Shown here: piece by piece, positions 3,337-64,000 of the stretch
Layout of the letters: every line of letters begins with the position of its first letter
How positions within the stretch are numbered: position 1 is the stretch's first letter
IMG/VR virus record: IMGVR_UViG_3300033067_002106
Span: 18,836 to 82,835 of that record
From: a virus
Taxonomy: Duplodnaviria; Caudoviricetes
Length of the DNA: 64,000 bases
Direction: 5' to 3' (one strand)
Program-made: the position numbers and the translations under genes
The notes under the pieces: model-generated
Told to the model about the DNA's origin: nothing
Databases searched by the model: none
The model's input: only the letters and a program-made list of their open reading frames with translations

Positions 3337-4863
3337 ATGAAAAAAATTAAACTTACCAAGGAACAATATGACAGGCTAGTCACCAAAAATATATTTGAAT
3401 CATCAGATGTTAAAGGTGGGGTTAATAGGGTTAATACTACATTTAAGAAAGCATTTAACAAAGCTGACGTTCAAAATCTTGGTGAAGATGAATTTAATAT
3501 TACCAGACCAATTGCTGGGCTTCCAAATACAAAAATGAACAAGACAAAGGAAATCCCAACACCTGAAGCGATTACTGAAGATATTTTTAGTCCCGATGTT
3601 CATAAAGCGGTACATGATGTTATTCAAAACATCTGGCTTAATCCATCACAACAGGGGTTGGATAAATTTTTTGTTGAAAACGGAATTACATGGGGTGATA
3701 TAATTAGTTATCTTACTAGTGTAGGAGTTGTTGCGGCTGTTGGAAACGGAATATATAAAGTAACAAATTACTTTAAAAGAAAATTTAGTGGTAATAAGCA
3801 AAAAGATATGCAGATGAAGATGGCCGATATTGAAAAGATGGCCAAGATGGTTGAAAAAGACCCAGAATCTCCATGGCAAAAAAAGGTTAGATTACAAAGC
3901 AAACCAGAAACAGGGTTTGAACCCAAGCCAAAATCATTTAATCCAAATGGTCGTAAGCCTATATCTAGTTATCCTAATCCAGCTTTACAAAACAAAGAAA
4001 TGGAAGAAGCTAGTAATTATCCACCCGGAACTGAAGATGACCAATCAGCACCTTGGAATCAGGATAGTTCAAACGTTGAGATTTCAAGTGCCAAAAGGAT
4101 TTACAAACCTATTGTCATGAATTATGATATAGCGGTTCTAAATGGGCCAGATGGTGTGTATATTTTTTACTATGATGATATCGATAGAAGTGAAATACCA
4201 AACGCTGATTATGAGTTAACGATTGACGATTTGGTTGATTACGTAAATGAACATTCTGAAACAATTAAAAAAGGTATAGGAATGGAGGGGTGGAATTCAG
4301 GTGCCGAACTAATTAAACTGGATGAACCACTCAGGGAAGAGCTTATTAAGCTTTATTCTAAGGATAAAGAGTTAATGAAGGCCTTACAAAGACTTGAAGA
4401 GATGACCAGCGCAGCAAGCTCTGGTTCGTTTACAGGGCCATTCGGCGGAACACCAGACAAAAACCGTACAATGGGGTATAGTCCAGCTGAACAAATAGAT
4501 GAAATGACAGCCGCAGGTGGTGGCGGAGCACCAGAAGTCGGTTCAAGTTCAACAGGCCAATATGTTCAACCAGCTATTTGGGCCAATGGTAAAAAAAATT
4601 GGAAAGCGGCTAAGAAAACACAATATCCGGGTGGAGAAATGGTAGATTTAGATTCTTGTACCAAATTAAACAATAATAAATCCGCCCAAAATGGTAAATG
4701 TAGTACTGGAGCCGCTGATGGTGTTGTAAAAACACATAAAACCAATCAATCTGTTATTTCTAAGTCTGTTTATGAAGAAGTGGCTAAAAGAACGGGAAAA
4801 ACAATAGAAGAAGTAGAGAAAATTATTAAAACAAAACAGGTTAAGGATAAATCTTTAAGATAA
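3337..4863 (+). CDS. Hypothetical, probable virion/head-associated protein
   Basis: 508-aa ORF with low-complexity EEMT..A segments. Confidence 0.6.
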   Translation: MKKIKLTKEQYDRLVTKNIFESSDVKGGVNRVNTTFKKAFNKADVQNLGEDEFNITRPIAGLPNTKMNKTKEIPTPEAITEDIFSPDVHKAVHDVIQNIWLNPSQQGLDKFFVENGITWGDIISYLTSVGVVAAVGNGIYKVTNYFKRKFSGNKQKDMQMKMADIEKMAKMVEKDPESPWQKKVRLQSKPETGFEPKPKSFNPNGRKPISSYPNPALQNKEMEEASNYPPGTEDDQSAPWNQDSSNVEISSAKRIYKPIVMNYDIAVLNGPDGVYIFYYDDIDRSEIPNADYELTIDDLVDYVNEHSETIKKGIGMEGWNSGAELIKLDEPLREELIKLYSKDKELMKALQRLEEMTSAASSGSFTGPFGGTPDKNRTMGYSPAEQIDEMTAAGGGGAPEVGSSSTGQYVQPAIWANGKKNWKAAKKTQYPGGEMVDLDSCTKLNNNKSAQNGKCSTGAADGVVKTHKTNQSVISKSVYEEVAKRTGKTIEEVEKIIKTKQVKDKSLR

Positions 4864-17118: not shown

Positions 17119-17343
17119 ATGTTCAAAAGAAAATATTCAATAACAATTCTTGATGATAAATGGGAAAAATTAGTTCTTAATTATAATTTCACCCATATAC
17201 CAAGACGTGATGAGTTGATATTTTTGGATTCAATCGGGAAATATTATAAGGTTTTAAACGTTATTCATTATCTCACCAAAAAACAAGGTATTTTCATCAT
17301 TGTCAAGGAGTTCGAACATGAATTTCATCTAAACCCAAAATAA
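17119..17343 (+). CDS. Hypothetical protein
   Basis: 74-aa ORF. Confidence 0.65.
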   Translation: MFKRKYSITILDDKWEKLVLNYNFTHIPRRDELIFLDSIGKYYKVLNVIHYLTKKQGIFIIVKEFEHEFHLNPK

Positions 17344-17404
17344 TTTTGAAAAAAAAATCAAAAAAACTTGACACGAGCCAATTCTTTTCGTATCTTTGCA
17401 TATA

Positions 17405-17620
17405 TTTACTAAAAAGCTCTTAATTTACTGATACCCAAAAAAGTGGTTACGGCAACGTAAACAAAAACAATAAATGCTAAAGTAGGTATACCATCCTACT
17501 TGCTAGCCTTTTGCTAGTAAACAAAAAATGGTACTGTTATGGTGGCAGTATAAAATCAGCCCTTGTATCTGTTAGTCAAGTAAAATAAAGGCAAACCATC
17601 ACTTTGGGGTAACTTTTTAA
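17405..17620 (+). promoter_or_regulatory. Structured leader with amber-containing uORF (17474-17620; TAG at codons 4, 11, 34)
   Basis: Follows TTGACA/TAnnTTTG promoter; long-range helix about 17430-47/17594-611; internal hairpins. Confidence 0.45.
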
Positions 17621-17621
17621 A

Positions 17622-17680
17622 GGAATCATTACAGCAAATAAAATATTCTTGACTCAAAATTAAGACCAAAAAATGATTCC
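17622..17680 (+). ncRNA. CAGCAA-motif hairpin carrying an anticodon-arm mimic (CAA loop)
   Basis: ggaatcat/atgattcc stem; tacagcaa; tcttga-ctcaaaa-ttaaga. Confidence 0.45.
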
Positions 17681-17686
17681 GTATTT

Positions 17687-17752
17687 GCGTCCTTGGTGTA
17701 AGATAACACGGCTCCGCTGAGGAGTTAATCCAGTATCGAGTCTGGGGACGCA
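17687..17752 (+). pseudogene. Degenerate tRNA-like element
   Basis: gcgtcct/gggacgc acceptor; D arm present; 5-nt anticodon loop; 8-nt T loop. Confidence 0.55.
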
Positions 17753-17759
17753 CAAATAT

Positions 17760-17831
17760 TGCGAGGTAGAGCAGTAGTAGCTCGTGTGGCTCATAACCAT
17801 AAGGTCGGGGGTGCAAATCCCTCCCTCGCAA
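17760..17831 (+). tRNA. tRNA-Met(CAT), initiator-like
   Basis: Cloverleaf; ctCATaa loop; fMet-like D and T arms. Confidence 0.9.
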
Positions 17832-18732: not shown

Positions 18733-19239
18733 ATGCAAAATGAGATTCGTCTTCTTATAATCGGACCAGCCAGACATGGTAAAGACACATTGGCGGAAAC
18801 AATGCGTGATAATTTTGGACTTAACTTTAAATCATCATCACAAGCTTGTTCAGATATCTTTATTTTTAATGAATTAAAAGATAAGTATGGTTATACAACA
18901 CCAGAAGAATGTTTTGAAGATAGATTGAATCATAGAGCTGAGTGGTATCAATTGATTTGTGGTTATAACGTAGATGATAAAGCCAGATTAGCCAAAGAAA
19001 TATTGAAAGATAACAACACATATGTTGGTATGAGAGATAAGGATGAAATCAAAGAATGTATGAATCAGAAATTATTTGATTTGATTATCTGGGTAGATGC
19101 CGAAGGAAGACTTCCAAACGAATCCTCGGAGTCATTTAATATCACCAAGGACCTTGCCGATATTATTATTGAAAATAATGGTACACCAGAAGAGTTTAAT
19201 AAAAAAATTATCAGATTGGGTAAATTTTTAAAAAAATAA
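18733..19239 (+). CDS. P-loop nucleotide kinase (dNMP kinase-like)
   Basis: GPARHGKDT P-loop. Confidence 0.65.
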   Translation: MQNEIRLLIIGPARHGKDTLAETMRDNFGLNFKSSSQACSDIFIFNELKDKYGYTTPEECFEDRLNHRAEWYQLICGYNVDDKARLAKEILKDNNTYVGMRDKDEIKECMNQKLFDLIIWVDAEGRLPNESSESFNITKDLADIIIENNGTPEEFNKKIIRLGKFLKK

Positions 19240-27852: not shown

Positions 27853-28197
27853 ATGGCAAGGTATATAGCAATCTTCACGGATAATCATAATGAAGAATTT
27901 GATGTTAACGGATTCAAAACAATGACAGAACGTGAAGTTGAGAATTTTGAGAATTTAGCAATGAGTATTACATGGGAATTTAGTTATCGTGCAAATGACG
28001 AAGCCCTAACCTATGTGAGTGGTGAGGATTTACTATCAAGAATAGAATTCAAAGAGATATCCAAGGCTGAATATGACTCGTTGGAGAAAGTGTTTGGTGG
28101 TGAATTTGGCACCTTTATCAGTGAAGAATATCTTGAAACAATCATTGATGATGAGGAAGGCCCAGATACTGAAGATTGGGATGAAGAGGACCAATAA
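27853..28197 (+). CDS. Hypothetical acidic protein
   Basis: 114-aa ORF. Confidence 0.7.
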   Translation: MARYIAIFTDNHNEEFDVNGFKTMTEREVENFENLAMSITWEFSYRANDEALTYVSGEDLLSRIEFKEISKAEYDSLEKVFGGEFGTFISEEYLETIIDDEEGPDTEDWDEEDQ

Positions 28198-28199
28198 AA

Positions 28200-28261
28200 A
28201 AATATTTAAAAAAAAGTCAGAAAAAACTTGTTTATTTGGAAAAGTTTTGTATATTTGCATT
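28200..28261 (+). promoter_or_regulatory. Conserved tRNA-operon promoter, copy 1
   Basis: aaaaaacttgtttatttg...gtatatttgca; near-identical at about 58045 and 63585. Confidence 0.8.
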
Positions 28262-28395
28262 CTAATTGATAACAATCCACGCAGTAACTGAGACCAATGG
28301 ATTGGGTGTTAAGCCTGAATAAGAAGCTGGTAAAACCGATAAATTTGTTTCTCAGCAAGTGCTTCTAAAAGAAACTGACACAAATATCAATTAGA
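28261..28395 (+). ncRNA. Candidate small RNA with paired ends and CAGCAA core (Y-RNA-like topology)
   Basis: Perfect 10-bp 28261-70/28386-95 followed by U run; inner helices 28273-79/28298-304 and 28347-51/28371-75. Confidence 0.55.
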
Positions 28396-28468
28396 TTTTT
28401 GATTTTTTTGCTTTTTTTAATTTTGTAACATATTTATTACTTAACGGGTAACCCATAAACATAAAACA

Positions 28469-28567
28469 ATGAGAACTATTAACATACATATGAATTCGAT
28501 TAATTGGAGACGCAATAGTCATTCAAATCGACAGGTCATGCTTAATAGTGACGATACTTGGGGATAA
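28469..28567 (+). CDS. Leader peptide MRTINIHMNSINWRRNSHSNRQVMLNSDDTWG
   Basis: A-rich initiation region; followed by terminator; composition matches downstream tRNAs. Confidence 0.8.
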   Translation: MRTINIHMNSINWRRNSHSNRQVMLNSDDTWG

Positions 28568-28587
28568 CCCAGCAATCAAAATACTTT

Positions 28588-28622
28588 AAAGCCTCTGACC
28601 CAGAAATCAGAGGCTTTTTTTT
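28588..28622 (+). terminator. Attenuator terminator
   Basis: aaagcctctga-8nt-tcagaggcttt plus T run. Confidence 0.85.
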
Positions 28623-28625
28623 ATT

Positions 28626-28796
28626 ATGTTAGATGAAAGATACAAGAAACTAGGTAGTGAAACACAAAAAAATCTAAATACTGATTTTGACAGAATATAT
28701 GAGAAGTACAAAGAGAAAGCATTGGAGCTGGGGTTTATGGGTGAATTGAAGTTTGTGAAGGAACGTGGAAGAGTGTTGATTTATGTAGTTATTTGA
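28626..28796 (+). CDS. Hypothetical 56-aa protein
   Basis: Not in ORF track; open frame ATG to TGA. Confidence 0.55.
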   Translation: MLDERYKKLGSETQKNLNTDFDRIYEKYKEKALELGFMGELKFVKERGRVLIYVVI

Positions 28797-28812
28797 AATA
28801 GATTTTATATAC

Positions 28813-28883
28813 ACAGGTATGGTGCAATGGTAGCATACGAGTCTCCAAAACTTTTGATGTGGGTTCGAATCCTACTACCTGTG
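28813..28883 (+). tRNA. tRNA-Trp(CCA)
   Basis: Cloverleaf; ctCCAaa; G73. Confidence 0.9.
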
Positions 28884-28980
28884 CATTGTGCATCGCCTAG
28901 CCTCTTATTGGCTCTCTAAACCAATTACGAAGCGATTCCCTAACGCAAGGGAGATACGTTAATAATAAGAATGTATCACA

Positions 28981-29064
28981 CACCTCGGCTCATTGGCGTG
29001 ACCAGTCGGTTCCAACCCGATAATGCGTAAGCGTGGTTAAGAGTTCGAATCTCTTCCTTGGTGC
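28981..29064 (+). tRNA. Atypical tRNA with CCA anticodon and Sec-like body
   Basis: Imperfect 8-bp acceptor; small D loop; long variable arm; ttCCAac. Confidence 0.5.
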
Positions 29065-29068
29065 AAAT

Positions 29069-29238
29069 TGATGAGTGTTGAAAATTAAGGGCCAGAAGGC
29101 CCAACGGCAGACATGCCCCTTTGTCTCAGGGGTGGTGATAACGAGATAGATAAACAGTAACGGGTTGACCACAAGCTTGCAAGCACACATGCTGTTTACC
29201 GAATCGCACCGTGGATGGTTCGAATCCTCCCTCATCAG
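29069..29238 (+). ncRNA. 170-nt tRNA-like RNA with very large variable domain
   Basis: tgatgag/ctcatca acceptor; T arm; GTC-containing 7-nt loop hairpin; long internal helices. Confidence 0.55.
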
Positions 29239-29380
29239 CAAAGTTTGAATGACGTAAACGTGGGAAAATTTCATTAACTGGGTTCGAATCCTAGGTCTGG
29301 GTCTAACCCAGACATTGATAACATATCAAACGATATTTAGTTTACTTGGACAACGTTCTATAAAAATCGGAGTCCGTTAT

Positions 29381-29469
29381 GGAGAGGTCGCATAATGGTA
29401 GTGCAGCAGTCTTGAAAACTGCCGTGTCGATGATGAGTCGGCTTTAGGGTTCGAGTCCCTATCTCTCCG
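29381..29469 (+). tRNA. tRNA-Ser(TGA)
   Basis: Class II cloverleaf; ctTGAaa. Confidence 0.9.
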
Positions 29470-29515
29470 CAAAGTAATCGAAAGAACAGTACTTAACGAT
29501 TAGATTACTAGACAG

Positions 29516-29602
29516 ACCCTATTGGTCGAGAGGCTTAAGACATCTTGCGAGAAGCAGGAGGCCCCGTGAAATGGTCCGTGGGTTCGAATCCCACATAGGG
29601 TT
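29516..29602 (+). pseudogene. Ser-like tRNA with aberrant anticodon loop (cgAGAag)
   Basis: Class II body; lacks U33; flanks extend the acceptor stem to 12 bp. Confidence 0.55.
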
Positions 29603-29611
29603 TGTCAACTT

Positions 29612-29697
29612 GGAGAGTTAAGGAAGGGAAGGTCCCTCGCTTGCTTGGAAAGCAAGAACCCATTAAGTTGGGCGGTTTTCGAATAGCCAGCTCTCCT
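29612..29697 (+). tRNA. tRNA-Ser(GGA) with 8/4 acceptor/T-stem fold
   Basis: ggagagtt/agctctcc 8 bp; ggtt/agcc 4 bp; ttGGAaa. Confidence 0.7.
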
Positions 29698-29709
29698 CCT
29701 TGACTTTAC

Positions 29710-29784
29710 GGTGGCGTTAGCTCAGTTGGTTAGAGCATCAGATTGTGATTCTGAGGGTCGTGGGTTCGAACCCCATACGCCACC
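29710..29784 (+). tRNA. tRNA-His(GTG)
   Basis: G-1:C73; ttGTGat. Confidence 0.92.
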
Positions 29785-29793
29785 CCCTGATAT

Positions 29794-29869
29794 TGTTAAG
29801 TGGTGTAATTGTAGATAGCATGACTCTAGCGCAGGGGTAGGAAGTTGGTGCAACTCCAATACTTAACAG
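29794..29869 (+). pseudogene. Degenerate tRNA-like element
   Basis: tgttaag/cttaaca acceptor; T arm; irregular anticodon loop. Confidence 0.5.
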
Positions 29870-29875
29870 CAACAT

Positions 29876-29966
29876 GGTGTGTGTGGTCCGAGTGGTCGAA
29901 GGAATCTGCCTGTGAAGCAGAATGAGATTATATCAAACGTCGTGGGTTCAAATCCCATCATGCACC
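29876..29966 (+). tRNA. tRNA-His(GTG) with 20-nt variable region
   Basis: G-1:C73; ctGTGaa. Confidence 0.75.
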
Positions 29967-30011
29967 CTTTAAGATGGTTGTGAGTATACTGTAATCAGAA
30001 ACTCTCAAATC

Positions 30012-30089
30012 GGTGTCGTAACCCCCCTGTCTGATACACAGGACAAAGGTAATTGGTGGGAGATATGGGTTCGAGCCCCATCGACACCA
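30012..30089 (+). tRNA. D-arm-less tRNA-Ile(GAT)-like
   Basis: Perfect acceptor, anticodon and T stems; no D stem; GTAATTGG in variable region. Confidence 0.65.
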
Positions 30090-30096
30090 CAGACAA

Positions 30097-30179
30097 CCTG
30101 ACGAGGCAGACTGGTTGATGCACCACCCTGATAAGGTGGGTTCGCAAGAACAAGGTGGGTTCGATTCTCACCGTCAGGA
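30097..30179 (+). tRNA. tRNA-Ile(GAT) with variable arm
   Basis: ctGATaa; gttc-gcaa-gaac arm. Confidence 0.8.
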
Positions 30180-30181
30180 CA

Positions 30182-30379
30182 ATGAAAATTGAAAAAGCAA
30201 TTGAGGTATTACATGATGTTGGTGTTGCTAAAAGTACAACATTAGAGATTATGTATGAATTATTAGAAAATGCAAATAAATATGCCAATAATTCAGAAGC
30301 AATCGAAAAGCTTTTAAAAGAAAAGCTTTCAATTGAAGAATTCATCTCGGTTAAAAATCAATTTATTTTGGACGCTTAG
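30182..30379 (+). CDS. Hypothetical protein
   Basis: 65-aa ORF; stop overlaps next tRNA. Confidence 0.55.
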   Translation: MKIEKAIEVLHDVGVAKSTTLEIMYELLENANKYANNSEAIEKLLKEKLSIEEFISVKNQFILDA

Positions 30380-30443
30380 CTCAGTTGGTTAGAGCAGCTG
30401 ACTCATAATCAGCGGGTCACTGGTTCGAACCCAGTAGTGTCCA
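30370..30443 (+). tRNA. tRNA-Ile2/Met(CAT)
   Basis: Cloverleaf; ctCATaa; Ile2-like context. Confidence 0.9.
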
Positions 30444-30444
30444 C

Positions 30445-30641
30445 GGGGATGGGGAGGTTAAATCTCGCTCGGACAAAACTGAGTAACCCTTAATCGGGGT
30501 TCGATTTTATCAAAGACCATCAAAGAGACCTGAAAAAAGAGTAACTAACACAACGGGATGTTGTTGTAGAAGAAAATTTTCTAACATTGGAGATGAAAAC
30601 TGGATAAATAGAATAAGCGGGTGAAATTCCCGTCGTCGCCA
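30445..30641 (+). ncRNA. Candidate 197-nt RNA with tRNA-like ends
   Basis: ggggatg/cgtcgcc (6 of 7 paired); gcggg-tgaaatt-cccgt T-like arm; flush between two tRNAs. Confidence 0.4.
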
Positions 30642-30646
30642 AACCT

Positions 30647-30737
30647 TGGGTAGTAGCAGCGGTGCCTTATACGCATCACACTTGTAACTGGCATCTTGAG
30701 ATAACTTCAAATGTGGGTTCGAACCCCATCTACCCAA
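30647..30737 (+). tRNA. D-arm-less tRNA-Ile(TAT)-like
   Basis: Acceptor, anticodon (ctTATac) and T stems; GTAACTGG in variable region. Confidence 0.65.
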
Positions 30738-30803
30738 CAATTGGAATCATATTCTTGTTGCCCCGTTTGGGATATGATATTGAAATTGAGTTACGGGGCC
30801 CTT

Positions 30804-30888
30804 GGATGGGTTGCTTTAGAGGCCGAAAAGTCTAGATTGTTAATCTAGTGTCGCAAGACCACCGTGGGTTCGACTCCCACCCCATCCT
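30804..30888 (+). tRNA. tRNA-Asn(GTT) with variable arm
   Basis: ttGTTaa; gtc-gcaa-gac arm; U73. Confidence 0.7.
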
Positions 30889-30895
30889 CAAATAT

Positions 30896-30969
30896 TCTGA
30901 TGTAGCTCAGTTGGTTAGAGCATCTGACTGTTAATCAGAGGGTCGTAGGTTCGAGTCCCACCATCAGAG
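30896..30969 (+). tRNA. tRNA-Asn(GTT)
   Basis: Canonical cloverleaf; G73. Confidence 0.92.
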
Positions 30970-30983
30970 CAAATAAATGTGTT

Positions 30984-31220
30984 ATGGAACTTAAAAGCAT
31001 TTCAAAAGAGGTTATCGATGAGTACAAAGAATTTATTCTTGAGCGATTAACTATCCGTCCAACTGATACTCCAACAGCTATTGCTAGCAGAGCATGGTAT
31101 CGTGGGTTTAAGGATTTCAGGTTTGATGATGCTAGGGCTTTGGCTGAGAAGGTTAAACAGATTTATTTGACACATATCAACAAGAAAACTATTTCTGAAG
31201 TTAGAGATATGATTTTTTAA
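30984..31220 (+). CDS. Hypothetical protein
   Basis: 78-aa ORF. Confidence 0.6.
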   Translation: MELKSISKEVIDEYKEFILERLTIRPTDTPTAIASRAWYRGFKDFRFDDARALAEKVKQIYLTHINKKTISEVRDMIF

Positions 31221-31221
31221 C

Positions 31222-31296
31222 GGACAATTAGCTATTAATTGGTAGAGCGAGTGGTTGTTAGCCACAGGGTTGTGGGTTCGAATCCTACATTGTCCG
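31222..31296 (+). tRNA. tRNA-Asn(GTT)
   Basis: Cloverleaf; ttGTTag. Confidence 0.8.
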
Positions 31297-31387
31297 CTTT
31301 TTTAGTTCTTTGAAATTATTTTTGTTTTAAAGTTTAAACTTTGGGTATAGTTTCGGTATTTATTAAATGATAACTTTCGTTTAATAA

Positions 31388-32461
31388 ATGCAACAAACAA
31401 TGCCACACAACACCAAGGTACTTTTTATCCTAAAAAGAAGACAAGATTATAATGGAGACAAACATTCACATGCTAATTTAAGCACTGGGTTATATAATTC
31501 AGCGGCTTTTATGAATGATATGTTAAATGAACAAGGTATTCGTTCTAAGATTGCTGTTGTTAGAGATAACAATGATATCGATAGACAAGTCACCAAGTTC
31601 AAACCAAAATATGTTATTATTGAAGCACTTTGGGTTGTTCCAAGTAAATTCAGTGTTTTATGTAAGCTACACCCTAATGTAAAATGGATTATTCGTTTAC
31701 ATAGTGAAATTCCATTCTTAGCAAATGAGGGAATAGCAATGGATTGGTTGGGTGATTATCCAGCTTTTCATAATCTTATTATAGCAGCAAACGCTCCGAG
31801 AGCATTAAAAGACCTTAGATTTTATTTAAAGACAAAGTATCATTGGAACGATGAAAAACTTGAGAAGAAAGTCATCTATCTTCCAAATTATTATCCAGAT
31901 ACTTACAAACGTAAGGAATTTGATGATACCAAATGTCACATTGACATTGGTTGTTTTGGTGCAATCAGACCAATGAAAAATCATTTAACTCAAGCAATTG
32001 CGGCAATAAAGTTTGCTGAATCTATTGGTAAAAAATTAAGATTTCATATCAATGCTGGAAGGATTGAACAAAAGGGTGATAGTGTATTGAATAATCTTAA
32101 AGCTTTATTTACACAATTAAAGTCTTCTGGTCATCAGTTGATTGACCATGGTTGGATGCCTAGGGAAGAATTCTTAAAGGTGTGTGGAAAAATGGATATT
32201 GGAATGCAAGTTTCAATGTCAGAAACCTTTAATATTGTTGGTGCTGATTTGATGGGCCAAGGTGTTCCTCTTGTCGGTTCAAATGAAATTCCTTGGATGT
32301 GTAAGTTTTTTACTGCTAAACCAACAGATACTGAAAGCATTTATAGAAAACTAAGATTAACTCATTGTTTTTCTAAAGTGAATGTTTTCTTAAATCAATT
32401 ATTCCTGAGAAAATATACAAATAAAACAAGGAAGATATGGGTTAAATACTTCGAAGATTAA
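31388..32461 (+). CDS. Probable GT-B glycosyltransferase
   Basis: IGCFGAIRPMKN; DIGMQVSMSETFNIVGAD..GQGVP. Confidence 0.6.
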   Translation: MQQTMPHNTKVLFILKRRQDYNGDKHSHANLSTGLYNSAAFMNDMLNEQGIRSKIAVVRDNNDIDRQVTKFKPKYVIIEALWVVPSKFSVLCKLHPNVKWIIRLHSEIPFLANEGIAMDWLGDYPAFHNLIIAANAPRALKDLRFYLKTKYHWNDEKLEKKVIYLPNYYPDTYKRKEFDDTKCHIDIGCFGAIRPMKNHLTQAIAAIKFAESIGKKLRFHINAGRIEQKGDSVLNNLKALFTQLKSSGHQLIDHGWMPREEFLKVCGKMDIGMQVSMSETFNIVGADLMGQGVPLVGSNEIPWMCKFFTAKPTDTESIYRKLRLTHCFSKVNVFLNQLFLRKYTNKTRKIWVKYFED

Positions 32462-32478
32462 ATTAAAACAAAGGTAAC

Positions 32479-32757
32479 ATGAAAAAAAGAAACAAATTAA
32501 CTATTAATATTACACAATGGAAAAATGGTGTGCTAGACGTATCTGATATTGAATGTGATTCACTAGATGAAGCAAAAGGATTTATCAGGGGTCTTAAGGG
32601 TAAAATGAAGGTTAAGGTTTATGATGGAAATAAAAGAGTTCAACATTCAGAGGACATAGATAATGAAGATAAACATGAACACCACGAACACCACGAACAT
32701 CATGGACATCATGAACACCATGGTCATCATGAGCATGATAACGATTCATATTGTTAA
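32479..32757 (+). CDS. Small protein with His-rich (HE/HG)n tail
   Basis: HEHHEHHEHHGHHEHHGHHEH. Confidence 0.7.
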   Translation: MKKRNKLTINITQWKNGVLDVSDIECDSLDEAKGFIRGLKGKMKVKVYDGNKRVQHSEDIDNEDKHEHHEHHEHHGHHEHHGHHEHDNDSYC

Positions 32758-32869
32758 TATTAGCTTTCTATTTTTCATTTAAATGCCGATGTATCCAAGT
32801 GGCCAAAGCTATATTTGGATAAAATTGGAGTGTATTTCCCTGTGACAATTAGCACAAACTAAAATACAT

Positions 32870-32939
32870 TGCATGAGTTATTGGAATACAGCCATCTCTC
32901 ATAAGGAAGGCCAAGGCGGTTCGACTCCGCTTCATGCAA
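32870..32939 (+). tRNA. Degenerate tRNA-Met(CAT)
   Basis: Good acceptor and T arm; weak D and anticodon stems. Confidence 0.55.
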
Positions 32940-32945
32940 CAACAA

Positions 32946-33024
32946 GCCGATGTAACCAGTTCTGTCTTCGAAACAGTTATCTGTAATGGAGTTGCAAATG
33001 TGGGTTCGAATCCCTCCATCGGTT
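32946..33024 (+). tRNA. D-arm-less tRNA-Arg(TCG)-like
   Basis: ctTCGaa; no D stem; GTAATGG in variable region. Confidence 0.65.
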
Positions 33025-33077
33025 CAACAACACTTATAGAGCCTCTCAATGATGCGCAACTTCTATAGGTTTTATTT

Positions 33078-33153
33078 GGCTTTATAGTTTAACTGGATAA
33101 AACACCTGATTGCGAATCAGGAGACGTGATGGGTTCGAATCCCTCTAAGGTCA
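33078..33153 (+). tRNA. tRNA-Arg(GCG)
   Basis: cctga-ttGCGaa-tcagg; bulged T stem. Confidence 0.8.
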
Positions 33154-33208
33154 CAAATTGTATTATGATTGTATTTTTAAAATATGAATGTGTTTATGTT
33201 GACCGACT

Positions 33209-33439
33209 ATGTGGGTCAACATCATACAACTTCGTGTAAACGAAAAGCAATCAAAAAAAATTGATAGAAGCAAGGTTGAGAAACATAGAAAACACCTTGA
33301 AATGGGCGGTGACATGTTTCCAATCGACGTTGTAAAAATCAATGAAGAAGAACACTGTATTTGCGGCAATGGCAGACACCGTTACTATGGTGCGTTGGAA
33401 GCCGGTGTTCAATTTATTGATGTCAATGTACTGAATTAA
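33209..33439 (+). CDS. ParB-like small protein
   Basis: PIDV...GNGRHRYYGA. Confidence 0.5.
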   Translation: MWVNIIQLRVNEKQSKKIDRSKVEKHRKHLEMGGDMFPIDVVKINEEEHCICGNGRHRYYGALEAGVQFIDVNVLN

Positions 33440-33440
33440 T

Positions 33441-33518
33441 GGTCTCGTAGTGTAACAGGATAACATAGACGTTTCCTAAACGGCCAGAGTAAGGGTTCGA
33501 ATCCCTTCGAGACTACCA
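33441..33518 (+). tRNA. tRNA-Arg(CCT)
   Basis: Cloverleaf with encoded CCA. Confidence 0.88.
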
Positions 33519-33523
33519 AATAT

Positions 33524-33612
33524 GCCCCAGTAACCGAGTCGGCCTTCTAAGCTGTTAATCGTAATTGGAGTTGAGATTGTATCAAACGCAGGTTCGAATC
33601 CTGTCTGGGGTT
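33524..33612 (+). tRNA. D-arm-less tRNA-Arg(TCT)-like
   Basis: ctTCTaa; GTAATTGG plus TGAGATTGTATCAAAC in variable region. Confidence 0.65.
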
Positions 33613-33618
33613 CAAGAT

Positions 33619-33694
33619 GGTTCCATAAGCTAACTGGATAAACTGGCCGCCTTCTAAGCGGCACTTATGGGTTCGAATCCCGTTGGAACTACCA
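33619..33694 (+). tRNA. tRNA-Arg(TCT)
   Basis: Cloverleaf with encoded CCA. Confidence 0.9.
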
Positions 33695-33762
33695 AATATT
33701 TCGTATGAATGTACCATACAGTATGGCATCCAGTACTAGGCAAAAACCCCTAGTCGGTAGCC

Positions 33763-34050
33763 ATGAACAAGAAAAGAAGACAAGAGCTTAAACAGCTTAA
33801 ATTTATTAATCGTATTAAACGATTTATTGCAAATGGTAAATATTATTTTACCAAGGATAGAGAACGGATTGATTCGCCAACCGTTCAAGATATAATCAAC
33901 GATGGTGGGTTTTTATGTTATAAAACAACATCAACACCATGTTCCTGTTATACGTGCTCTGGGGAATATAAATACCGTAGACATGAGCATAAAATAATAG
34001 AAAGAAAGTTGGTTCAAGAAGGATTGGAAGATTATTACAACCTAGATTAG
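33763..34050 (+). CDS. Hypothetical basic protein with Cys cluster
   Basis: TPCSCYTCS. Confidence 0.65.
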   Translation: MNKKRRQELKQLKFINRIKRFIANGKYYFTKDRERIDSPTVQDIINDGGFLCYKTTSTPCSCYTCSGEYKYRRHEHKIIERKLVQEGLEDYYNLD

Positions 34051-34062
34051 TCTAGGTATTTT

Positions 34063-34151
34063 GGAGGATAGGCAGATACGGTTTGCTGCGTTAGTTTGCT
34101 AAACTAATCTACCCCACAAGGGTAGTGAGGGTTCGAATCCCTTGTCCTCCG
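34063..34151 (+). tRNA. tRNA-Ser(GCT)
   Basis: Class II cloverleaf; ttGCTaa. Confidence 0.9.
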
Positions 34152-34209
34152 CTAAAGGCCACACATGTGTGGTCTTTTTTTGTTTTATACCATATTTATT
34201 ACTAAAAGT

Positions 34210-34599
34210 ATGGCATTCATTCCCAATCACTTACATTTGATAGTTAAGGGTAAAATCAACAACCCACCTAAAGAAGAAATCGACTTAAATAATTGGTTTA
34301 TAGAGCTGGTAAAGGGTGTCCGAATGGTAGTAGTGGCGGGTCCGACATCAGTTTACGTAAAAGATGAAGGGAATGAGGGGTTAACCGGAACGGTGACACT
34401 TGCCACATCTCATGCTTCAATTCATATTTGGGACAATACAATCCCATCTCTTTTTCAATTTGATATTTATTCGTGTTCATGTTTTACCGTTGAGGAGGTA
34501 TTACAACATTTAAACAAATTTGACCTAAGTGAATATGAGTACATATTTATTGATAGAAATAATGAAATAAAGATTATAGATACTGGGAAAAATCAGTGA
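34210..34599 (+). CDS. speD: S-adenosylmethionine decarboxylase proenzyme-like
   Basis: GLTGTVTLATSHASIHIW...FDIYSC. Confidence 0.75.
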   Translation: MAFIPNHLHLIVKGKINNPPKEEIDLNNWFIELVKGVRMVVVAGPTSVYVKDEGNEGLTGTVTLATSHASIHIWDNTIPSLFQFDIYSCSCFTVEEVLQHLNKFDLSEYEYIFIDRNNEIKIIDTGKNQ

Positions 34600-58044: not shown

Positions 58045-58095
58045 AAAAAAGTAAGAAAAAACTTGTTTATTTGAGAAAGTTTCGTATATTTGCAT
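58045..58095 (+). promoter_or_regulatory. Conserved tRNA-operon promoter, copy 2
   Basis: aaaaaacttgtttatttg...gtatatttgca. Confidence 0.8.
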
Positions 58096-58110
58096 ATATT
58101 TATTAAAACA

Positions 58111-58191
58111 ATGAAAAAGATGAGTAACATATTGGTCCTTTGTTTATGTGTGCTAGTGCTTACTAGTACGGCTGGGATATTTATGTTATAA
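58111..58191 (+). CDS. Leader peptide MKKMSNILVLCLCVLVLTSTAGIFML
   Basis: LVLCLCVLVL core; antiterminator ggctggg 58170-76. Confidence 0.85.
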   Translation: MKKMSNILVLCLCVLVLTSTAGIFML

Positions 58192-58212
58192 CATCACTGA
58201 AATATAGCATTC

Positions 58213-58241
58213 AAACCCAGCCATTTAGGTTGGGTTTTTTT
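58213..58241 (+). terminator. Attenuator terminator
   Basis: aaacccagcc-attta-ggttgggttt plus T run, directly before tRNA-Cys. Confidence 0.85.
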
Positions 58242-58243
58242 AT

Positions 58244-58327
58244 GTCTACGTGGTCGAGTGGTCGATGGCAGCGGTCTGCAAAACCGCAAGGGAAACCTCA
58301 TCGTTGGTTCAAATCCAACCGTAGATT
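58244..58327 (+). tRNA. tRNA-Cys(GCA) with long variable region
   Basis: ctGCAaa; U73. Confidence 0.8.
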
Positions 58328-58453: not shown

Positions 58454-59092
58454 ATGCCAAGAAAAGAAAAGGAGTATCACTTCATTTACAAAACGACCAA
58501 CTTACTTAGTGGTAAGTATTATATCGGAATGCATAGCACAGATAACCTTGAAGATGGTTATATGGGTAGCGGAAAACGACTTAGATATTCGTTGAATAAG
58601 TACGGTAAAGAAAACCATAAGGTGGAAATATTAGAGTTCTTTGATTCAAGAGAAGCCTTAGTTGAAAGAGAGAAATGGATTGTTTCTTTAAACGAGATTG
58701 CGAAAGAAGAGTGTATGAATTTAGTTGTTGGTGGTCAAGGTGGTTTTATTAGTTTAGAAGGTGCAAAGAAGGGTGGTAGAATTGTTGGGTATAAAAATGG
58801 TAAAAAACATGCCTTACGATTAGAAACGGATTTGATTTATCGAAATAATTTTTTAAATAGAATGAAAGCCGCACATCAAAGCGGGAGAGTTAAATACAAA
58901 AGTTTCAAGGGTAAAACACATACTGATGAAGCGAAAGAAAAAATGAGGAATAAGAAGCTAGGAAAAGGACTAGGGAAGACTAATTCTCAGTATGGTACCT
59001 GTTGGATTAACAACGGTACGCAAGAGATAAAAATTAAAAAAGAAGACTTAGAGAATTGGTTAGAGAATTCATGGGTTAAGGGTAGAATATAA
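58454..59092 (+). mobile_element. GIY-YIG homing endonuclease (MPRK family, copy 2)
   Basis: Clear paralog of 16149. Confidence 0.85.
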
Positions 59093-63579: not shown

Positions 63580-63641
63580 AATATTTAAAAAAAAAACCAG
63601 AAAAAACTTGTTTATTTGGAAAACTTTTGTATATTTGCATT
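63580..63641 (+). promoter_or_regulatory. Conserved tRNA-operon promoter, copy 3
   Basis: Near-identical to 28197-28261. Confidence 0.8.
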
Positions 63642-63682
63642 ATATTTATAAACAAGGGGAAATACCCCACAAAGAAAAAGAA

Positions 63683-63772
63683 ATGAGAAGCGTTAATTTT
63701 ATATTTGATTTTGCGATTGAAGCAGCCGAGGCCGATTTTAGCCACGGAAGGTCGAGTATTGCCCAAAATTAA
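63683..63772 (+). CDS. Leader peptide MRSVNFIFDFAIEAAEADFSHGRSSIAQN
   Basis: F/D/A/E-rich core; antiterminator aggtcgag 63749-56. Confidence 0.8.
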   Translation: MRSVNFIFDFAIEAAEADFSHGRSSIAQN

Positions 63773-63795
63773 CGTTTGAAAGATAACAAGTTTTG

Positions 63796-63825
63796 AAGCC
63801 CTCGACCTAAAATCGAGGGTTTTTT
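63796..63825 (+). terminator. Attenuator terminator
   Basis: aagccctcga-cctaaaa-tcgagggttt plus T run, directly before tRNA-Asp. Confidence 0.85.
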
Positions 63826-63829
63826 GTTT

Positions 63830-63917
63830 GGATATGGCGCATAGCGGTTGTTGCACCACCCTGTCACGGTGGTAAGTAGGTAAAACGAAAAAGCGGGTTC
63901 GATTCCCGTCATATCCG
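63830..63917 (+). tRNA. tRNA-Asp(GTC) with 20-nt variable region
   Basis: ccacc-ctGTCac-ggtgg; G73. Confidence 0.78.
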
Positions 63918-63966: not shown

Positions 63967-64000
63967 ATGCCTAGAAAACAAAAAACAATTCACTACCTTT
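63967..64000 (+). mobile_element. GIY-YIG endonuclease (MPRK family, copy 3), 3' partial
   Basis: 63924-64000 is identical to 16106-16182. Confidence 0.8.

Follow-up and report, generated by a model that had tools for sequence, protein, structure and literature searches.

Candidate leader-peptide attenuators in front of amino-acid-sorted tRNA operons in a jumbo-phage fragment and its relatives

The stretch of DNA analyzed here, hereafter the window, comprises 64,000 nucleotides (positions 18,836 to 82,835) of the IMG/VR virus record IMGVR_UViG_3300033067_002106, which has a length of 82.8 kb and is a fragment of a jumbo phage, since its completeness was judged to be only 23%. The window carries a tmRNA gene and 31 tRNA genes. 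The element under study precedes one of the tRNA operons and consists of a short open reading frame (ORF), termed the leader, and an intrinsic terminator, behind which lie a conserved 56-aa ORF and an array of tRNA genes that includes six more protein ORFs (Table 1). In this array, ARAGORN called genes for Trp, Ser (three), His (two), Ile, Met, Asn (three), Arg (anticodons GCG, CCU, and UCU), and Ser (GCU), as well as a doubtful Ala (AGC) that scored 18.5 bits in Rfam, below the threshold. A preliminary description of this DNA, made from the letters alone, had pointed to a 32-aa upstream ORF ahead of a strong terminator and had proposed an attenuator that switches the array on when any one of seven tRNAs runs short; both the ORF and the terminator are indeed present.

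The leader is composed almost entirely of the amino acids served by the operon behind it. Twenty of its first 21 residues belong to the set M, R, I, N, H, S, and W, a count already given in the preliminary description and confirmed by recounting, the sole exception being Thr3. Among the 427 ATG-initiated ORFs of 21–60 aa found in the whole 82.8-kb record, the runner-up reached an in-set count of 15. A binomial test of the leader composition, of the kind that had been proposed together with the attenuator, gave P = 8e−8 against the composition of small ORFs and P = 6e−10 against that of the proteome. Moreover, 18 of the 19 codons at positions 2–20 are readable by anticodons of the array. The further suggestion that ATA, CGC, and CGA codons of the leader are matched by unusual anticodons (UAU, GCG, and UCG, respectively) stood in part: GCG was called by ARAGORN, UCG was read by eye from the loop of a tRNA match reported by Rfam only (32946–33024), and UAU was read by eye in a tRNA-like stretch near 30643–30738 called by neither program.

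Searches against GenBank phages with the leader as query (both as DNA and as peptide) gave no match, those with 7.9 kb of the leader/tRNA region gave generic tRNA matches only, and the CCA-adding enzyme encoded nearby was at most 38% identical to proteins of uncultured megaphages, so that no cultured relative was at hand. Relatives were retrieved from IMG/VR through this neighbouring CCA-adding enzyme, which yielded 23 loci (54–75% identity). The leader was present in most of them, and 16 distinct leaders of the same kind (type 1) were collected. The first ~55 nt of the leader ORF are 85–90% identical even in distant loci, while the C-terminal half varies, and all insertions and deletions between type-1 leaders are multiples of three. 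In the core of the alignment (columns 5–19), every alternative residue type (16/16) falls within the set I, N, H, M, S, W, and R, and the exchanges include the unrelated Ser codons TCG vs. AGT/AGC. Such selection on set membership favours translation of the leader and sensing by decoding. A terminator is always present behind the leader, and the array that follows had the same amino-acid set wherever it was scanned; conservation in relatives was one of the checks that the preliminary description had named. Equivalents of the 56-aa ORF (56–67 aa) lie between terminator and first tRNA in most type-1 relatives (L001–L017) and are lacking in the other leader types described below.

Two more cassettes of this architecture were found in the window, and their promoters are identical nearly letter for letter to that of the first one. 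Cassette 2 is followed, from position 58244, by tRNA genes for Cys (two), Val (two), and Leu (five), and because its tRNA-Cys gene begins ~2 nt past the T-run of the terminator, the regulated genes are the tRNAs themselves. The leader core of cassette 3 is made up of F, D, A, and E; a tRNA-Asp gene follows at 63830, the window ends at 64000, and the Phe, Glu, Asp, and Ala tRNAs predicted from this core are exactly those that lie behind the same leader type in relatives. In related records, tRNA genes for Pro, Gln, Tyr, Thr, Gly, and Lys lie behind a fourth leader type, whose core consists of K, T, Y, Q, P, and G. The four tRNA sets ({W,S,H,I,M,N,R}, {C,V,L}, {F,E,D,A}, and {P,Q,Y,T,G,K}) together account for all 20 amino acids. 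All four types occur in one related record (G002), and a complete relative of 288 kb (G001) has types 1 and 4 only. Altogether, 39 distinct leaders of 24–36 codons were assembled. Most of the 96 matches to the type-2 pattern were chance hits, and only those with an ORF, a terminator, and tRNA genes were retained. The fraction of residues 2–20 that belongs to the set of the leader's own operon was 0.91, 0.54, 0.60, and 0.91 for types 1–4, vs. 0.00–0.23 for foreign sets. Types 1–3 share their first five or six residues (roughly M-R/K-T-I-N), which accounts for most of this off-diagonal signal as well as for Thr3 of the window leader.

These comparisons also bear on the possibility that the leader is untranslated and that the terminator is controlled by its conserved stretch acting as an RNA element, for instance through binding of a protein or, as in a T-box, of tRNA itself. 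The very high nucleotide conservation of the first 55 nt would fit such an element, and part of it is explained by the pairing with a downstream segment described below and by an inner hairpin. We nevertheless regard this explanation as very improbable, given that the indels are in frame, that ATG and stop codon are kept in all 39 leaders, that substitutions switch the codon family yet keep the amino-acid set, and that the four leader types are unlike in sequence while each spells the amino acids of its own operon. Searches in Rfam, at gathering scores for the whole window and in a permissive mode (E up to 5) for 28150–34300, produced only matches related to tRNA or tmRNA; neither T-box nor any Rfam leader family (Trp_leader, His_leader, Thr_leader, Leu_leader, and others) was matched in 28150–34300.

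Behind each of the 39 leaders lie a hairpin with an energy between −11 and −17 kcal/mol and a T-run. In the window, the terminator stem (28588–28598/28607–17) has 11 pairs with an 8-nt loop and a T-run at 28615–28622, and the hairpin reaches −15.2 kcal/mol; its two arms are termed regions 3 and 4, while regions 1 and 2 are segments further upstream (Table 1). In all 39 leaders and all four types, the ORF pairs best with its own terminator (5′ arm) at codons ~20–25. The antiterminator sequences differ by lineage (e.g., GGUCAAGG, GAGUCGGG, UGUCAGG, and GGCUGGG), each matching its own arm. Nucleotides 50–82 of the ORF pair with their own arm at a mean of −12.8 kcal/mol, compared with −8.5 ± 0.39 kcal/mol for permuted partners (0 of 5000 permutations as low), and control segments of the ORF reach −2.6 and −5.2 kcal/mol. 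The antiterminator thus covaries with the terminator arm. Covariation was assessed by such partner-swap energies and not by pair counts, as the MAFFT alignment of type-1 cassettes leaves the terminators out of register. In computed folds from which the terminator was absent, 37 of the 39 leaders show region 2 paired with the sensor codons.

With these results it is hardly credible that the small ORFs are functional micro-proteins, or chance ORFs beside an ordinary terminator, and that the match to the tRNA sets is a coincidence. Small ORFs often arise by chance in DNA as AT-rich as this, and type-2 leaders do resemble hydrophobic signal or membrane peptides, but the composition of the window leader alone has P ~1e−7, the correspondence recurs in four independent types and 39 leaders, a segment inside the ORF covaries with the terminator arm, and the C-terminal halves are poorly conserved.

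For the window leader, the preliminary description had named a weak antiterminator of 5 bp (ggtca 28534–38 with tgacc 28596–600); it is found at these positions and is as weak as described, and together with a second block (GCUU 28540–43 with AAGC 28589–92) it totals −10.5 kcal/mol (RNAduplex). In the full-length minimum free energy (MFE) structure, region 1 is paired with region 2 (28475–87 with 28534–49) and the terminator is formed (−41 kcal/mol). A fold that competes with the terminator, as the proposed attenuator calls for, was found as well; in it, region 2 is paired with region 3 and region 1 is left single-stranded (−29 kcal/mol). When a stalled ribosome was simulated by masking, as had also been suggested, ~8 pairs between regions 2 and 3 remained for stalls at codons 4–16, and 1.4 for a stall at codon 19. 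This follows the scheme of trp-type attenuators with three hairpins, where stalling at any of the sensor codons would release the antiterminator.

Overall, we consider it probable (about 0.75) that the element is a ribosome-mediated, i.e., leader-peptide, transcription attenuator gating the phage tRNA operon. The original idea of an attenuator that responds to any of seven tRNAs is thereby supported by the conservation of the leader, the in-set substitutions, the constant set of the array, the covariation of the antiterminator, the pairing of regions 1 and 2, and the three other leader types. The tRNA block would then probably be transcribed only when ribosomes read the leader codons slowly. 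Anatomy, conservation, covariation, and the correspondence of leaders and operons are observed; we infer the physiological signal and the following course of leader translation, stalling, and read-through. Transcription would start at the Bacteroidota-type promoter and the 32-codon leader would be translated. As long as aminoacyl-tRNAs for codons 2 to ~17 are plentiful, the ribosome would run through, region 2 (28533–49) would be covered by it or paired with region 1 (28475–87), the terminator (28588–28622) would form, and most transcripts would stop short of the tRNA genes. Slow reading of even one of the codons for Ile, Asn, His, Met, Ser, Trp, or Arg would stall the ribosome where it masks region 1 and leaves region 2 free to pair with the terminator's 5′ arm, whereupon RNA polymerase would continue into the 56-aa ORF and the tRNA array. 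Since the operon itself produces the tRNAs that are sensed, the circuit would be one of negative feedback, by which tRNA supply is matched to decoding demand. The sister attenuators would act alike on the Cys/Val/Leu, Phe/Glu/Asp/Ala, and Pro/Gln/Tyr/Thr/Gly/Lys operons.

Several observations weigh against this interpretation. The antiterminator of the window (−10.5 vs. −15.2 kcal/mol for the terminator) is among the weaker ones in the set and, taken alone, is not above chance, as 13 of 34 foreign arms pair equally well in the partner swap. In transcripts cut after region 3, the pairing of regions 2 and 3 beats that of regions 1 and 2 at equilibrium even without a ribosome, hence termination in the unstalled state must be kinetic or proceed via occlusion by the ribosome. 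The stop codon of type-1 leaders is located ~27 nt past region 2, so that a ribosome at the stop leaves region 2 uncovered (7.6 pairs remain) and type-1 termination would depend on the kinetics of the pairing between regions 1 and 2. Between the promoter and the conserved 5′ untranslated region (UTR) lie ~180 nt that are special to this genome, the promoter being ~50 nt from the ATG in relatives; this spacer, with a hairpin and a U-run, might cause early termination or mean that transcription starts elsewhere. Internal promoters may also contribute to tRNA transcription; a scan for TTG-N17-23-TAnnTTTG found no canonical one in 28622–34152. One relative (L009) has the leader and no tRNA genes behind it. 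Furthermore, the leader codons do not sample the operon's tRNA species more fully than synonymous codons drawn according to phage codon usage would (11 of 13 species, P = 0.50; 7 of 8 species, P = 0.29), and the conserved rare TCG codon cannot count as a sign of codon sensing because it sits in the inner hairpin. Extra tRNA would also be of no use against a stall caused by amino-acid starvation.

Another use of the same hardware would be as a sensor of general translation speed (amino-acid starvation, ribosome shortage, translation-targeting host defences, or phage shut-off), by which the tRNA operons would be timed or switched under stress. A stalled ribosome cannot distinguish a missing tRNA from an uncharged one, a single promoter class for three cassettes suggests common timing, and the lack of significant matching to individual tRNA species is in line with such a switch. 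However, general sensing has no need for four leaders that are each limited to the amino acids of their own operon, nor for substitutions that stay within the set (16/16), and we consider it unlikely.

A full promoter-like site (TTTG ... TACCTTTG) was seen in one related record (G003, locus L038), where it is located at 4686–4728, directly behind the type-3 terminator and ahead of tRNA-Phe. From its sequence, this operon may also be transcribed independently of its attenuator, which adds to the reservations listed above.

The attenuator reading places the phage cassettes close to the multivalent leader-peptide attenuators that control amino-acid operons in enterobacteria, such as ilvL of ilvGMEDA (Ile/Val/Leu) and thrL (Thr/Ile), and also to trpL, hisL, leuL, and pheL. 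With ilvL and thrL they would have in common a short translated leader with regulatory codons, the hairpins 1:2, 2:3, and 3:4, an intrinsic terminator before the regulated genes, and the sensing of several amino acids by one leader. They differ in that the targets are tRNA genes and not biosynthetic enzymes, the sensed molecules being the operon's own products, that as many as seven amino acids are sampled, each through one or a few dispersed codons and not through runs, that they are phage-borne with a promoter type of Bacteroidota hosts and without sequence similarity to Rfam leader families, and that they form a set covering the whole code. To our knowledge, all leader-peptide attenuators described so far target operons for amino-acid biosynthesis, transport, or synthetases, and the tRNA targets of the phage cassettes fall outside this range. 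E. coli pheM-pheST resembles them in that a component of the translation apparatus is attenuated through a leader peptide by the supply of charged tRNA, but there a single amino acid and a synthetase are involved, while the phage targets are whole tRNA operons (four cassettes, 20 amino acids). T-box riboswitches likewise respond to tRNA status by forming either a terminator or an antiterminator ahead of translation-related genes; they bind uncharged tRNA via a specifier codon and need no translation, whereas the evidence for the phage element points to a translated ORF and no Rfam T-box was matched. Clustered phage tRNA genes interspersed with homing-endonuclease genes are also known from T4, from Vibrio and Pseudomonas jumbo phages, and from mycobacteriophages, and the arrays of large phages are thought to supplement or replace host tRNAs during infection. 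Unlike those arrays as described, the ones reported here are sorted by amino acid into operons, each behind a cognate candidate leader-peptide attenuator. In full-text searches of the literature, neither attenuation of tRNA operons (phage or bacterial) nor phage tRNA arrays sorted by amino acid behind cognate leader-peptide attenuators were found to be described. The mechanism itself is classical three-hairpin attenuation; what is new is tRNA genes as its target. An arrest-peptide sensor like SpeFL or TnaC (W-R-R-x-x-H motif) was also considered and was dropped, as four unrelated leader types each track the amino acids of their own operon.

Arrays of phage tRNA genes are commonly regarded as supplements whose expression is passive. 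It is conceivable, though we regard this as speculative, that this phage family runs a complete demand-driven tRNA supply, with four gated operons covering all 20 amino acids, each switched on only by slow decoding of its own codons, and serving as both sensor and counter-measure against loss of host tRNAs, be it through host anticodon nucleases or through shut-off by the phage itself. Ribosome stalling would in that case set off a phage counter-defence. If the attenuator reading is right, the virus would gauge decoding speed per codon set and make only those tRNAs that are in short supply. Leader-peptide attenuation would be extended to the genes of the sensed molecules themselves, and the fixed amino-acid grouping of tRNA genes in these jumbo phages would be explained. 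The cassettes would furthermore allow direct study of the circumstances in which phages need tRNAs of their own, and of the reasons, and would provide synthetic biology with compact, modular sensors of single-tRNA availability.

Table 1. Positions of the parts of the candidate attenuator, the tRNA operon behind it, and the two sister cassettes in the window
Feature	Position	Strand	Details
Bacteroidota-type promoter	28228–28257	+	TTG ... TATATTTG at 28250–57
Structured insertion	28261–28395	+	135 nt, closed by 11-bp stem, then T-rich tract
Conserved 5′ UTR	28430–28468	+	ATATTTATTA box; small GGGTAACCC hairpin 28446–54; A-rich run before ATG
Leader ORF	28469–28567	+	32 codons, ATG start; sensor codons 2–21 = 28472–28531
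Region 1	28475–28487	+	within sensor codons; pairs with 28534–28549 in terminating fold
Region 2	28533–28549	+	5′ part 28534–43 pairs with terminator arm 28589–28600; whole region pairs with region 1 in alternative fold
Intrinsic terminator	28588–28622	+	regions 3 and 4 plus U-tract
Conserved 56-aa ORF	28626–28796	+	first gene after attenuator, between terminator and first tRNA
tRNA operon	28813–34152	+	Trp, Ser, His, Ile, Met, Asn, Arg, Ser, with small protein ORFs and uncalled tRNA-like genes
Operon-end terminator	34154–34184	+	
Sister cassette 2	58063–58243	+	same promoter; 26-codon leader 58111–58191, core LVLCLCVLVL; antiterminator 58170–76/58216–22; terminator
Sister cassette 3	63608–63826	+	same promoter; 29-codon leader 63683–63772, core FIFDFAIEAAEADF; antiterminator 63749–56/63801–08; terminator

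The promoter was assigned by its match to TTG ... TAnnTTTG, which we take to be the Bacteroidota consensus. The fold of the structured insertion downstream of it has an MFE of −32.7 kcal/mol (z = −2.8), and the insertion could end some transcripts upstream of the leader. No second copy of the inserted segment (28255–28440) was found in the record or in any of the fetched loci. The gap between the −7 box of the promoter and the conserved 5′ UTR is a hot spot of insertion in type-1 loci (28259–28438 in the window; 1734–1861 in L001; 1395–1530 in L032): L001 has an unrelated insert of ~130 nt in this place, and G002 has a small ORF for a very basic peptide of 36 aa.

Within the operon, the product of the 56-aa ORF had no Pfam or PHROG match, and a 74-aa ORF (30155–30379) inside the array matched ribosomal protein L22 in Pfam below the threshold (21.4 bits; cut-off 28). 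Five stretches (28990–29300, 30012–30090, 30643–30738, 32946–33024, and 33524–33612) have T-arm ends of the GGTTCGAATCC type and anticodon-like loops (GAU, UAU, UCG); they were missed by ARAGORN, had a low Rfam score or none, and look like unusually built tRNA genes. Directly after the operon-end terminator, a gene resembling S-adenosylmethionine decarboxylase was found at 34165–34599 (Pfam AdoMet_dc, 36.7 bits). Elsewhere in the window, an array of Met, Met, amber-suppressor, and Cys tRNA genes (17336–17760) has a promoter of the same class and a different 5′ region, partly conserved in L026 and L036, in which no clear leader ORF was recognized, the only frame being broken by TAG codons. Genes for SegE-like GIY-YIG endonucleases are scattered inside the tRNA operons (58454–59092 and 63969–64000 in the window, and many ORFs in L002, L005, L011, and L020); the copy at 58454–59092 matches Pfam SegE_GIY-YIG with 25.7 bits, and the others were recognized by their shared N-terminus only.

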